Part shown: one piece after another, positions 4,894-27,053 of the stretch
Numbering within the stretch: position 1 is the first letter of the stretch
Layout: each line of letters opens with the position of its first letter
Origin: a virus
Lineage: Duplodnaviria; Heunggongvirae; Uroviricota; Caudoviricetes
Length of the DNA: 39,417 nucleotides
Strand: one strand, 5' to 3'
IMG/VR virus record: IMGVR_UViG_2671181055_000004
Notes under the pieces: generated by a model
The model's database searches: none
What the model saw: only the letters and a program-made list of their open reading frames with translations
What the model was told of the DNA's origin: nothing
Made by a program: the position numbers and the translations under genes

Positions 4894-5187
4894 TTAGTCC
4901 GATTCACGCTTTTGTAGAATCGTTCCCAGAATGCTATACAGCTCATTAGCCTGTTGCTCCATCATTGAGACGGAGGCTATACGGTGCAAAGTGATTTCAG
5001 GAGGTGGCACACCTCCATCTTCTTGCTGTGGAGGAAAAACATAAGATTTAATAAAAAAGTTGAAGCATATGAACTCTCCCGCACTCGAACTGTATTTGCA
5101 GGCATCTGAATAATCGGAAAAATAATCATTATAGATTTCCGCATTTTCAATCATTTTTCGATTTCTCGTCGTTACATGATTGTCCAT
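4894..5187 (-). CDS. Hypothetical 97-aa protein in a low-GC island, divergent from com/mom
   Basis: ATG at 5187 with AGAGG 6 nt upstream; surrounding 4740-5440 is visibly AT-rich compared with the phage backbone; no recognisable domain. Confidence 0.45.
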   Translation of the reverse strand: MDNHVTTRNRKMIENAEIYNDYFSDYSDACKYSSSAGEFICFNFFIKSYVFPPQQEDGGVPPPEITLHRIASVSMMEQQANELYSILGTILQKRESD

Positions 5188-22683: not shown

Positions 22684-24256
22684 CCAGCATCCCCTTCATT
22701 TCCGCAGCAAACATGGCATCACTGAGCAGCGTCATCAGGCGGGAATCATCCATTTCACGGTAAAGGGCAGGCAGGTCTGCCAGTGCCTCCGCCAGCCCCC
22801 GCGTTCTGATGACATCAATGACCGGCTCCAGCACCGGATCGATGGCCTCCTGTAAGCGGCGGGCAGGCACCGCGTCCCCCATGTCGTCCAGTTCATCACG
22901 CGGCGTGTTTTTCGCTTCCGGCAGTCGGGCTGAAAGCGCCGTCTGTTCTGTCTTTTCCTGTTTTTCCGGTAGCGTTTCCCTGTCAGGCATGGCCGGTTCA
23001 TTACTGCTCTGACGGACACGGAATATGGCTTCACCGGGCGTGGGCTGTGGAATACCGGTCTGATCCCGTACCCAGGGATCAGGAATATCCATCCCCGCAC
23101 TGAGTTGCATCACCGCACTGGCTATTTTGGTGATATCCCCCGGTTCTTTGGTCTGGAAACAGATACGCGGCAGGCGACGGATATCAATGGCGTGGGCGGT
23201 GTTCAGGGCATACAGCGGATACACCAGATCGCGGTTCAGGGTTGCAGCCAGCTGGCGTAAATCAGAATCCCTGATTTCCCGGCGCACCTCGTTATGCACC
23301 TCACCCAGCGAGCGCGCGCCTTTGTCTCCGGCTTCTGTGGTCAGCGTGCCGCCGAGTATTGCTTTGGAGATGGAACGCTCACCCCACGAAATCATGGTTT
23401 CAAACGGATCGGCCTGACCGTTCGCTGCCGCCTGAAACTCCAGCGACATCCCGGCCGGGATGATCCCGCCTGTACGTCGCCCGATATCCATCACCGCCCG
23501 CATCAGGGCACTTTTCTGCTCCGGTGTTGCCCCGGACGGGTATTTCCCGACCTTCATTGGCAGGCCGTACACCTCCAGAAATTCCGCCAGATCGCGCACG
23601 GAATAGTTTTTGAAAATGAACGGCCAGATAAGCGTTCTGACAAGCCCCGTCGCACCACCGTAGCCGGTGCGTGAACGCGACTGATGCACTATCCAGCCAA
23701 AGGGCTGAAACGCCACCCCGGCATGGCTGCCGTCACGCAGCCGCAGTTCGCTCAAATCATCCGGGTTAAGGCAGAAATGCCCGCTGTCACGCCAGCGGAT
23801 GGCGCGGATGATGTGCATTTTACCGAGCATCCCGTGCTCAATTTCCATGCAGGAATAGCCCTTCAGGATGGCATCCGTGGCGTCAAACAGCATGGCATCA
23901 AACCAGTCTGCGGAATGCAGATATTCGTCGAGCATTTCCGCGTCCTTTTTCTCATTCGCGCTGGCGTTCGGTGGCGGCTCAATACTCCATGGCACCCCCT
24001 GAATGGCAAGACGTCGCTTGCCCAGCTCCGCAAAAAGGTGGGTGTCCTTTTCTTCAATATCAGCGGCCAGATCGGACTGGGCAATCAGATCGCCACGTTC
24101 AGCCCCGCGAAGGCACTGCGCCGCCCGGTTCGGGGTGATACCCGAAGCCGGATGTTCAATATAACGGCTGGCAATCTGCGGAATATCCAGCGCGGCACTC
24201 TGCATCTCCGGGTCAAAGGAGAAAGGTTTTCCGTCAGTATCAATGATGCGTCCCAC
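22667..24256 (-). CDS. Portal protein (Mu gp29-like)
   Basis: 529-aa ORF (GTG start) directly after the large terminase gene. Confidence 0.85.
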   Translation of the reverse strand: MGRIIDTDGKPFSFDPEMQSAALDIPQIASRYIEHPASGITPNRAAQCLRGAERGDLIAQSDLAADIEEKDTHLFAELGKRRLAIQGVPWSIEPPPNASANEKKDAEMLDEYLHSADWFDAMLFDATDAILKGYSCMEIEHGMLGKMHIIRAIRWRDSGHFCLNPDDLSELRLRDGSHAGVAFQPFGWIVHQSRSRTGYGGATGLVRTLIWPFIFKNYSVRDLAEFLEVYGLPMKVGKYPSGATPEQKSALMRAVMDIGRRTGGIIPAGMSLEFQAAANGQADPFETMISWGERSISKAILGGTLTTEAGDKGARSLGEVHNEVRREIRDSDLRQLAATLNRDLVYPLYALNTAHAIDIRRLPRICFQTKEPGDITKIASAVMQLSAGMDIPDPWVRDQTGIPQPTPGEAIFRVRQSSNEPAMPDRETLPEKQEKTEQTALSARLPEAKNTPRDELDDMGDAVPARRLQEAIDPVLEPVIDVIRTRGLAEALADLPALYREMDDSRLMTLLSDAMFAAEMKGMLDGSGD

Positions 24257-25923
24257 TACCAGCCCCCCCGATCAAATTCATGATATGCCTCATCGTCATC
24301 ACGATAACCGCCCTCCATTGCCCGCGACCGCTCCTGTAGCGCCTGACAGGCTGATTCATCCAGGATGAAGCCCTCCATGTATGACGCCCGGTTTGCCATA
24401 CAGAGCGCCACGGCAAAATCACCATGGCGGCGGGCGTTCGCAGCCGTTGCGTTCTGGTCCTTCGTGCGCCCCTTGTCGATTTGCGGGATACCATTCACTA
24501 CCTTCACATGGCGCAAATCATCAAGCGTGGTCTGATGGCGGGCGACGAGGATATTCTGATCTTCAAACTCGGCTTTCAGTTTTGGCATCCACTCGCCGTA
24601 CCACTTCGGCGACAACATCACGCAGTCGATGATGTCCGGGCCAAAGGCCAGCAGTGCGGCCTCTGCCAGATAGCCGCCGTTACCGGTGGCGTCGAACGCC
24701 GCACCGACCAGCGCCGGAACGCGGGTCAGGATGTACATCATCACCTGTTCCTGCTGGGCATACGGCAGGTTGCGCAGCTCCACGCGAAACACCTCGCGCT
24801 TTGCCAGGGATTCGGTGATTTCCAGCAGCACAAAGCAGGACAGGTCACCGGTGCGGGCAAAGTCTTCCCCGAAGCTGAAGCGGGAACGGGGATTTAATTT
24901 CTCTAAAAGCGGTTTTAAATGTTCTTCACACCAGGTTAAAACTTCCGATTCACGCAGCCATGCGGCACGGCTGATGAAGTTGTCCGGGGCTTCAAACGTC
25001 AGAATCGGGATGTCGCGGATCATCGCCATTTCAATAAGCGCGTGGGGGATATAGGCACCGCCGGATTTTTTCGGGATACAGCCGTATTCCTCGTCGGCAT
25101 CCTCACGGGTCGGGGCGTTTTTGTAGAGATCATCACGCCATTTCTGCTCGCTTTCCGGTGACCATTCCTGATCGGTGACGTAACAGATACGACGGTACAG
25201 CCCGTCCGCAATGGCATCATCCAGGGTTATGCGGTGGACGCTGTAATCCTTGCGCCCCTCGCGGGCTTCCTGAATGTACTGATTAAACAGATTATCGACG
25301 CCGTTATGCGTGGAGATAATACGCACGCGCGCGCCCCACATAGTGAGCGCCATTGCCGCCTTGAGAAGCTCATCCAGTGACTCGTGGAACGCGGCTTCAT
25401 CAATCACCACATCCCCCTGAAGGCCGCGCAGGTTTGACGGACGGGAAGACAATGCCTGAATTTTGAATCCACTGTTCGGAAAGCGGATCATGTAGGTCAA
25501 AATTTCTTCTTTTTTATCCCGATCCCAGAATGTCTGCTCATACACATCAGCATCTGCCAGCTGGTTAAAGGCACGGGAGAACAGCGCGCAGGCAGAAATA
25601 TATTCCAGCGCCATCTCCTGCTTTGATCCCACATAAAACACATTGCGGCCACCACGACGCTTCGGTTTTGCAGCAGTAATGACGTTACGCCCGGCTTCCG
25701 CCCAGGTAAGACCGGTGCGGCGGGATTTCTCCGCGATGCAGACCTGACTTTCATCTGCAAACCAGCGGGCCTGATAATCCAGAAACACCGGCATATCACC
25801 GGGCAAATCAAGGCTGTCCGGCACATCCACGCCCAGCAGGGCTTTTTCACCTGACAGATCAATTTTGCGGGGAGGCGTCATTTGCATCAGTGAAGGCGAC
25901 GTTTCTCTGGCTTTGTTCATCAT
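24256..25923 (-). CDS. Terminase large subunit
   Basis: 555-aa ORF following the small terminase gene. Confidence 0.9.
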   Translation of the reverse strand: MMNKARETSPSLMQMTPPRKIDLSGEKALLGVDVPDSLDLPGDMPVFLDYQARWFADESQVCIAEKSRRTGLTWAEAGRNVITAAKPKRRGGRNVFYVGSKQEMALEYISACALFSRAFNQLADADVYEQTFWDRDKKEEILTYMIRFPNSGFKIQALSSRPSNLRGLQGDVVIDEAAFHESLDELLKAAMALTMWGARVRIISTHNGVDNLFNQYIQEAREGRKDYSVHRITLDDAIADGLYRRICYVTDQEWSPESEQKWRDDLYKNAPTREDADEEYGCIPKKSGGAYIPHALIEMAMIRDIPILTFEAPDNFISRAAWLRESEVLTWCEEHLKPLLEKLNPRSRFSFGEDFARTGDLSCFVLLEITESLAKREVFRVELRNLPYAQQEQVMMYILTRVPALVGAAFDATGNGGYLAEAALLAFGPDIIDCVMLSPKWYGEWMPKLKAEFEDQNILVARHQTTLDDLRHVKVVNGIPQIDKGRTKDQNATAANARRHGDFAVALCMANRASYMEGFILDESACQALQERSRAMEGGYRDDDEAYHEFDRGGW

Positions 25924-26168
25924 GCTTTACCTGTCAGAATGCTTTTGATTCGGGACTCAAGCTCTTCAGTCATCACGTCCACGCCGCTCAACTCATCAGT
26001 GGCAGCCTCTGCCAGCAGCGAATGCAGTTGTTCCAGGGATATTTCCCCGGCAATGCTGAGTTCAGTCAACTCACGACATACCTTTATGGTTTCAGGAGGT
26101 AACTGTGTTGCAAGACTGAATGCTTTCTGATGGGCACTGCTCATCAGTGAGCGGTTATCTGTTGCCAT
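25920..26168 (-). CDS. 82-aa protein, paralog of the small-terminase C-terminus
   Basis: Strong SD GGAGGTG 5 nt upstream; C-terminus ATDELSGVDVMTEELESRIKSILTGKA parallels TerS VTDELRGVDGMSEQIEFRIRQMLLGKA; DNA similarity is also visible between 25925-25990 and 26179-26250. Confidence 0.55.
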   Translation of the reverse strand: MATDNRSLMSSAHQKAFSLATQLPPETIKVCRELTELSIAGEISLEQLHSLLAEAATDELSGVDVMTEELESRIKSILTGKA

Positions 26169-26178
26169 GATTCACCTC

Positions 26179-26760
26179 CTACGCCTTACCCAGCAGCATC
26201 TGCCTGATACGGAATTCGATCTGCTCGCTCATGCCATCCACGCCGCGCAACTCATCGGTGACCGCATTCGCCATCTCTTCAGCAAATGCGGCCCGGATTT
26301 CTTTTTCACGCTTAATGCTGCGCTCGGCGGCACTTTCTGCACGCTGTGCCGACAGGAGGATGTCCTTAATAAGGCGCATATCCACATCGCTGTCGCTGTT
26401 CAGGGATTCGGTGGCGGCACGCAGACGGCGGTACATCAGGGCACGGGACATCTCCAGAATCAGTGCCGTGGTTTCACCGGTCGGCTTATCCCCCAGTTCG
26501 GCCATCATGGCTTTTGTCTGCTCGCGTAAATCACGCAGATTACGGGCAATCAGCTCATTACGGGAGGCTTCCCGGCTGATGGCCGCCGGTGAGAGCTGCT
26601 GCTCTTCCGGCAGACCTGCTTCACGGATCAGACGGTTGATTTCCTCGCGGATCTGGACCTGCGTCAGACGTTTTTCACGCAGCATTTCCAGCAGCGGCTT
26701 ACGGATGCTGTCGGGGAGCAAATCCACCTTGCGTACACGGCCACGCGCTGGCTTATCCAT
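26179..26760 (-). CDS. Terminase small subunit (Mu gp27-like)
   Basis: 193-aa ORF with N-terminal HTH-like region, immediately upstream of the large terminase. Confidence 0.75.
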   Translation of the reverse strand: MDKPARGRVRKVDLLPDSIRKPLLEMLREKRLTQVQIREEINRLIREAGLPEEQQLSPAAISREASRNELIARNLRDLREQTKAMMAELGDKPTGETTALILEMSRALMYRRLRAATESLNSDSDVDMRLIKDILLSAQRAESAAERSIKREKEIRAAFAEEMANAVTDELRGVDGMSEQIEFRIRQMLLGKA

Positions 26761-26762
26761 CG

Positions 26763-27053
26763 TTACCCCCTTGCGCGTGGTTTCTTCACACCCGGAACGG
26801 TGGCGCGGCCTTCCGCCACATCCTGACCCCGGCCGGTCAGTTCAGCGATGAAATAACCGTTAACAAGCGTGCGCTTACGCACCAGTCCCTGCTCGGCAAG
26901 CCAGGCAATGTGGGTATGAACGGTGTCGCGGGACACGCGGTGACCGTAATCATCCAGGCAGTCCTGAAGCACGGATTCGCCCAGTTCGCCGTTGTAATCC
27001 GCCAGCGACCGCAGAATGACAAGACGCTGATCTTCAGTAATGAAATCACTCAT
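26763..27053 (-). CDS. Small winged-helix-like protein (Mu gp26-like)
   Basis: 96-aa ORF upstream of the small terminase gene. Confidence 0.45.
   Translation of the reverse strand: MSDFITEDQRLVILRSLADYNGELGESVLQDCLDDYGHRVSRDTVHTHIAWLAEQGLVRKRTLVNGYFIAELTGRGQDVAEGRATVPGVKKPRARG

Follow-up and report, generated by a model that had tools for sequence, protein, structure and literature searches.

The window analysed here, the 39,417 nucleotide (nt) virus record IMGVR_UViG_2671181055_000004 of IMG/VR, is a Mu-like Escherichia coli prophage in which an open reading frame (ORF) of 82 codons, ORF82, separates the small-terminase gene gp27 from the gene for the large terminase subunit, TerL. These three consecutive genes of the minus strand are the subject of our analysis. 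ORF82 is chimeric. Its first ~51-56 residues (the N-domain) are homologous to small genes found in the same gp27/TerL slot of related prophages, and the last 31 are a diverged duplicate of the gp27 C-terminal tail. It lies in a sharply bounded variable cassette, and is present in some prophages and absent from others that are closely related. The explanation we favour, and judge to be somewhat better than evenly balanced, is that ORF82 is a genuine though dispensable accessory gene, with a tail that is a relic of recombination and keeps TerL translationally coupled.

Residues 52-82 of ORF82 align without gaps to residues 163-193 of gp27, with 18 of 31 positions identical and 24 positive (BLASTP E 3e-10). 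A hidden Markov model (HMM) of 44 distinct gp27 tails gives residues 53-82 a score of 28.8 bits (E 4e-11 for this single target). The two tails have in common the motif A.TDEL.GVD.M.E.LE.RI..IL.GKA, and both end in GKA right before the TerL start. The gp27-tail motif ending LG[KI]A before TerL is thus found in ORF82, though with Gly-18 and Leu-4 replaced. Of the gp27 C-terminus, no motif is better conserved than this one in Mu and its relatives from Vibrio, Shewanella and enterobacteria. The segment is not of low complexity, and the alignment and HMM scores rule out a low-complexity or chance match. Duplication of the whole C-terminal half of gp27 is also ruled out, since BLASTP aligns the last 31 residues only and hhalign detects no profile similarity between the N-domain and gp27 families (probability 0.3%); by the same comparison neither the N-terminal DNA-binding region nor the central oligomerisation helices of gp27 are detected in the N-domain. 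ORF82 has no match to PF11985 at E≤1 and phrog_426 is not among its matches. On its sequence ORF82 falls outside the Gp27/TerS family, the match being confined to the tail.

An earlier note on this DNA had described an extra gene of 82 codons between the terminase subunits, with a strong Shine-Dalgarno sequence (SD), a stop overlapping the ATG of the large terminase, and an end that parallels the small-terminase C-terminus; it had added that Mu has no gene at this position. All of this holds. The gene is supported by the ORF calls and by family profiles, and the parallel by the pairwise alignment given above. The GGAGGTG is read at 26173-26179, where it shares the last base of the gp27 TAG, and lies 4 nt ahead of the ORF82 ATG (26166-26168), while the ORF82 TGA (25920-25922) shares bases with the tandem ATGATG where TerL begins. 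In Mu, 7 nt separate Mup27 from Mup28 and there is no gene between them. RefSeq labels ORF82 a hypothetical protein and PHROGs places it in phrog_30922, of unknown function, the profile of which covers residues 2-82 of 82 (E 6.9e-52).

Comparison of the window, which represents form B of the locus, with an insert-free form A (L007) and with a form C (L008) delineates the cassette. Between forms gp27 is 90-100% identical up to nt ~510-525 (codon ~175), and TerL is 92-100% identical from codon 18 ('PPRKIDL') onward; between these conserved flanks the sliding-window identity falls to 59-78%. In form A gp27 ends ...EQLESRIKGILLGKA* and overlaps TerL. Form C has the gp27 end and SD of form B, then an ORF of 67 codons (ORF67), a 120-nt spacer and a TerL with a different N-terminus. 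The first ~56 residues of ORF67 are homologous to ORF82 and its end is unrelated. A further arrangement, form D (L022), is form C minus the small ORF after its fourth codon, with the SD and four codons kept. The junction of gp27 stop and GGAGGTG is common to forms B, C and D. Hypervariability extends into the first ~17 codons of TerL (25870-25920 in the window; also compared in L007, L008 and L022), which have three unrelated versions (A, B and C/D) and a ratio of nonsynonymous to synonymous divergence (pN/pS) of ~0.6. Together with the gp27 tail these codons belong to a single exchangeable cassette.

The tail of ORF82 is closer to the gp27 tail of form A (71% identity in protein, 77% in DNA) than to that of its own neighbour (58% and 67%), and Ser-11 and Lys-8 are common to the ORF82 and form-A tails. 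The form-A tail matches the ORF82 tail at 77-78% along its whole length; against the gp27 tail of form B the match is mosaic, 92% then 72%. In the neighbouring gp27 tail the right half (IEFRIRQM) is derived, and it accompanies the insert across forms B, C and D. Because the ORF82 tail is closer to form A than to its neighbour, and the derived gp27 end travels with the insert, we suggest that it is the resident small-terminase tail, left joined to TerL. Recombination of an insert-bearing, form-C-like phage with an insert-free, form-A-like phage would have brought in a new gp27 end, the SD and an N-domain derived from the small, fast-evolving family of this slot, fusing the latter in frame to the old tail. 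The earlier note had offered 'remnant of modular exchange' as one reading of the gene, which fits the sharply bounded mosaic cassette, the form-A-like tail and the tail-less relatives of the N-domain in the same slot.

Why should such a tail persist? The ORFs found ahead of TerL in these phages all have similar sequence at their ends, and the last codons of ORF82, GGT AAA GCA TGA-TG, contain both the SD-like GGTAAAGC and the stop/start overlap. Consensus scans, which are of limited power, found no sigma-70-like promoter in 25700-26900 and no terminator-like site on the coding strand after ORF82 and before TerL. Two proteins from ENA metagenome assemblies (P0003 and P0004) have in-frame deletions of 2-3 residues placed exactly at the joint of N-domain and tail (LAEA--EELSG and LL---VTDELSG); these, with the loss seen in form D, indicate that the gene tolerates loss and remodelling. 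Since the ORFs preceding TerL end alike, frame-preserving indels are tolerated and no independent promoter was found, the tail copy may persist mainly through the SD-like sequence and stop/start overlap needed for translation of TerL. A frameshift or early stop in ORF82 would uncouple TerL. As a protein the tail would be decaying or drifting and not needed for packaging, and any function of ORF82 would reside in the three-helix N-domain, made with terminase late in infection.

The pattern of replacements points to relaxation. Gly-18, Ile-9 and Gly-3 are invariant in the 44 gp27 tails. All ORF82 alleles carry Gly-18 to Val, Leu-4 to Thr and Arg-22 to Ser, at positions that are constant or almost so among gp27 tails and by replacements that are seen in no gp27 tail, and in the hinge motif RG.DGMS the residues Arg-22, Gly-18 and Ser-16 are altered in every allele and Gly-21 in some. 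Among form-B loci the ratio of synonymous to nonsynonymous polymorphisms is 42 to 1 in gp27, 74 to 25 in TerL and 16 to 27 in ORF82 (omega ~0.5, P 0.03 versus neutral); with the halves of ORF82 analysed separately the departure from neutrality is not significant. For the tails the counts are 5 to 6 in ORF82 versus 10 to 0 in the genuine gp27 copy (Fisher P 0.012). Constraint on the ORF82 tail is relaxed. The frame itself is unbroken in each of the 13 form-B loci examined.

Several observations weigh against the explanation that we favour. The tail copy extends over 31 codons, far above the ~15 nt required for initiation of TerL. Of the 12 residues that do not vary among GKA-type gp27 tails every ORF82 allele retains nine, and just one of eight polymorphic tail positions falls on an invariant residue (P 0.09). 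Given the residues kept, and the tendency of polymorphisms to avoid them, the tail may still be under some constraint as a protein. The tail omega of 0.39, from 11 substitutions, is statistically compatible with neutrality or with moderate constraint. Form A could just as well have arisen from form B by deletion; likewise the sequence pattern at the 259-bp indel that distinguishes the two fits either insertion or deletion between the tail repeats.

ORF82 is not a universal gene of the Mu family, being absent from Mu, D108, SfMu, the Mu-like phages of Vibrio and Shewanella and most of 79 IMG/VR loci surveyed. The gp27 stop and TerL start codons overlap in the Vibrio and Shewanella phages, and a gp27 stop that abuts or overlaps the TerL ATG is the rule, in most of the 79 loci. 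ORF82 occurs in none of 50,697 phage records and in no GTDB species representative, and a HMMER scan of 1.8 billion representatives returned a few near-identical proteins and one relative of 67 residues. The gp27-TerL region is found in 230 of 5,426 complete E. coli genomes. ORF82 is present in 25 of the 230, and the region is exactly 259 bp shorter in the 205 without it. All O157:H7 genomes listed among the 230 are of the insert-free form A, and Sp18, the Mu-like prophage of O157 Sakai, shows efficient DNA packaging (PMC2669165). On these grounds the insert-free relatives appear fully functional, the form of Sp18 being taken from other O157:H7 genomes and not from the Sakai sequence. A single E. 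coli genome can hold up to four copies of the gp27-TerL region, strain 48 and JE86-ST05 being examples; co-resident Mu-like prophages are therefore common and provide ample chance for the recombination that we infer. In one form-A relative gp26 and gp27 are fused (P0046, Logan assembly, 291 residues), which may reflect a lost gp26 stop or an assembly error. The literature searched holds no description of the ORF82 gene or of a free-standing TerS tail.

A profile search with the N-domain gathers 41 proteins, comprising the E. coli forms of 82 and 67 residues and Salmonella forms of 65 and 87 residues. Their slot is always that between gp27 and TerL (7 of 7 locus sets inspected: L008-L013, L041, L042 and L097-L101). 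ORF67 (P0012) matches the N-domain with E 2e-7 in an exhaustive search. Across this family the gp27-tail HMM is significant in ORF82 only, and a gp27-like tail in the Salmonella form of 87 residues is not supported (1.5 bits, no DNA similarity). The Salmonella homologues keep a frame of 65 codons together with invariant Cys and Ile residues, and pN/pS for ORF65 is 0.30, compared with 0.06 for gp27 and 0.08 for TerL. Such a ratio, at a synonymous divergence (pS) of 0.31 and with length conserved, argues that the N-domain family is truly coding and fast-evolving. Within E. coli several ORF82 alleles (L004, L018 and L024-L026) start with GTG, not ATG. For the first ~17 codons there are two widely differing versions, MATDNRSLMSSAHQKAF and MEKNIRALIISARHEAF, a sign of further micro-mosaicism inside the gene.

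The AlphaFold2 (AF2) model of ORF82 has four helices (residues 5-21, 25-39, 45-60 and 67-79) and a mean predicted local distance difference test score (pLDDT) of 67. The N-domain provides three of these, with mean pLDDT of 62-83 in blocks of 10 residues. The model has no match in BFVD at E≤0.001, no relatives of ORF82 or gp27 were found among PDB sequences, and no match in Pfam, NCBIfam, PDB or BFVD/Foldseek suggests an activity for ORF82. The gp27 model (pLDDT 55) is too poor for a structure search; in it the tail is a terminal helix beyond a Gly-containing loop.

The main rival to our explanation is that ORF82 is a functional mimic of the TerS tail, which would dock the N-domain on TerL, or on a partner of the gp27 tail, and act either as an adaptor, bringing an accessory activity to the packaging motor, or as a competitor that tunes TerS:TerL assembly. 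The gp27 C-terminus is, after all, nowhere more conserved than in the copied segment, and TerS of lambda and P22 needs its last 22-40 residues to bind TerL (PMC9026076, PMC7672466). The nine retained invariant residues are accompanied by hydrophobic Leu-13, Ile-9, Ile-6 and Leu-5, AF2 gives the same helix-loop-helix for both tails with low confidence, and ORF82 has a strong SD and is co-translated with TerL. Against this stand the alterations to RG.DGMS and the change of Leu-4 to Thr, the accumulation of replacements in the ORF82 tail with none in the genuine one, the Salmonella and form-C homologues of the N-domain that lack a gp27 tail, and the absence of the gene from 205 of 230 related E. 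coli prophages. Binding of TerL by the tail of a Mu-like gp27 is also an argument by analogy, and the rule fails for PaP3 and SPP1. We consider mimicry unlikely, though it is the alternative to which we give most weight. It is less probable still that ORF82 is a free-standing TerS-tail module, the docked tail of which would tether the three-helix domain to the packaging motor and so alter how packaging starts, the stoichiometry of TerS and TerL or the competition among co-resident Mu-like prophages. Were that true, the hypervariable cassette of gp27 tail, small ORF and TerL N-terminus would confer specificity on terminase assembly as an exchangeable module.

ORF82 might instead be a pure coupling leader with no functional protein product, the frame being held open so that ribosomes terminate at the TerL start. 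The omega in E. coli is only marginally below neutral, and in neither half significantly so, the start codon alternates between ATG and GTG, in-frame indels are tolerated and forms A and D have lost the gene. However, the Salmonella homologues preserve frame length and the invariant Cys and Ile with a pN/pS of 0.30, form C retains ORF67 at 120 nt from TerL, where coupling is impossible, and a strong SD and 82 codons are superfluous for a leader; we regard this proposal as improbable. The N-domain family could also represent anti-defence or host-interaction genes in an accessory slot of the late operon, for which proximity to terminase is incidental and the tail irrelevant. Its members are small, helical and fast-evolving, and show presence/absence and allelic replacement between near-identical phages. 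In two distant Mu-like loci the gp27/TerL slot is occupied by an unrelated ORF of 63 or 68 residues (L078 3061-3252 and L079 ~2093-2300; phrog_1761/phrog_5120). Of these only the 68-residue ORF of L079 has a match to Acb2_Tad1_hairpin (PF24729), and it is sub-threshold, with E 0.061 and a score of 14 bits for a cut-off of 27. That lead lacks PDB sequence support, as the L079-type ORF has no sequence match to solved Acb2/Tad1 chains in the PDB, and ORF82 itself has no match at all. Nor do the database searches above suggest any activity, and anti-defence genes generally act early, which makes late-operon timing unusual. We think this very unlikely. It is in any case compatible with the favoured explanation of the tail and not an alternative to it.

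RNA elements are not supported. An Rfam search gave no credible match at the locus, and a hairpin is significant in L008 only, where codons 6-12 of ORF67 (5016-5038) form a perfect palindrome, GGGCGCTGA-TTA-TCAGCGCCC (z = -4.2), that is terminator-like on the antisense strand. For the equivalent positions of the window (26136-26155) folding is not significant (z = -0.44). The deletion in form D starts 3-4 nt upstream of the site of this palindrome.

The features of the window are collected in Table 1. The gp27 of the window shares 56.5% identity with that of Mu. The identity of TerL rests on PHROGs and on synteny with Mu gp28 only; there is no Pfam-A match at E≤1 and no NCBIfam match, and the RefSeq label is 'hypothetical protein'. 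Directly upstream of gp27, in all these phages, is a homologue of Mu gp26 with weak winged-helix or ArsR-like matches (E 3e-4 to 1e-2).

Table 1. Features of the terminase region of the window, with positions counted from its first letter.
Feature	Position	Strand	Basis or remark
Large terminase (TerL)	24256..25923	-	phrog_2 E 5e-43; Mu gp28 in same position
Variable cassette: last ~18 gp27 codons, SD, ORF82, first ~17 TerL codons	25870..26236	.	Sliding-window identity; 259-bp polymorphism
ORF82, chimeric accessory gene, 82 residues + stop	25920..26168	-	phrog_30922 E 7e-52
ORF82 tail, residues 52-82, diverged copy of gp27 tail	25923..26015	-	BLASTP E 3e-10; tail HMM 28.8 bits
ORF82 N-domain, residues 1-51, family of small genes of the gp27/TerL slot	26016..26168	-	Homologous to ORF67 and Salmonella ORFs of 65 and 87 residues
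SD of ORF82, GGAGGTG, over gp27 stop	26173..26179	-	Read from sequence
gp27, Mu Gp27 family, annotated small terminase, 193 residues	26179..26760	-	PF11985 E 3e-33; phrog_426 E 2e-54
Genuine gp27 C-terminal tail, residues 163-193, MANAVTDELRGVDGMSEQIEFRIRQMLLGKA	26182..26274	-	Source motif of the duplication
Mu gp26 homologue, phrog_436 'VpaChn25_0724 family'	26763-27053	-	

What would these findings mean for the biology of Mu-like phages? If the ordinary explanation that we favour is true, the locus offers a clean, bounded case of recombination at a junction making a chimeric ORF together with a partial gene duplication, and an indication that translational coupling can hold a recombination relic open. 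The analysis defines a family of small genes between the terminase genes of enterobacterial Mu-like prophages, and is of use in annotating such prophages, in which ORF82 and the adjacent TerL are now both called 'hypothetical'. To our knowledge the TerS-TerL interface has never been mapped in the Mu family. Should the tail bind TerL, ORF82 would be a natural dissection of that interface and a rare example of a phage that mimics the tail of its own small terminase.

Among known systems the closest to the tail is Mu gp27 itself (PF11985, DUF3486; phrog_426), the last 31 residues of which are homologous to residues 52-82 of ORF82, both being predicted to form a helix-loop-helix. ORF82 differs in lacking the other 160 residues, with their N-terminal and long central helices, and in having Val-18, Thr-4 and Ser-22. 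For the N-domain the comparison is with phrog_30922 and the Salmonella relatives of 65 and 87 residues (P0012, P0015-P0044), which have a homologous domain, the identical slot and their own SD straight after the gp27 stop, and are all fast-evolving. In most members of this slot family the stop overlaps the TerL ATG, whereas ORF67 of form C is uncoupled by its spacer, and a recognisable gp27 tail is confined to the E. coli form of 82 residues. The TerL-binding domains of lambda gpNu1 and P22 gp3 may be viewed as functional analogues of the copied segment, each a short TerS tail encoded directly upstream of TerL, but they have no sequence relationship to the ORF82 tail. We know of no free-standing copy of a TerS tail encoded by either lambda or P22.

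Small proteins that act on TerS-TerL by resembling or binding a terminase subunit are found in the Rpp of phage-inducible chromosomal islands (PICI) and the Ppi of Staphylococcus aureus pathogenicity islands (SaPI). Rpp, which binds TerS, is homologous to TerS but has no tail for binding TerL (PMC9026076). ORF82 is built the opposite way, with the tail and none of the TerS body. The phage itself encodes it, and in sequence it resembles neither Rpp nor Ppi. With morons and other ORFs at mosaic junctions it shares the splitting of two conserved genes, polymorphism among near-identical phages, with flanks that agree at 95-100% between forms A, B and C, and sharp mosaic boundaries. Unlike a moron, ORF82 has no promoter or terminator of its own that our scans detected, sits within the late operon with translational links to its neighbours, and duplicates part of the gene upstream. 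We rate ORF82 as an accessory ORF of the mosaic-junction kind.

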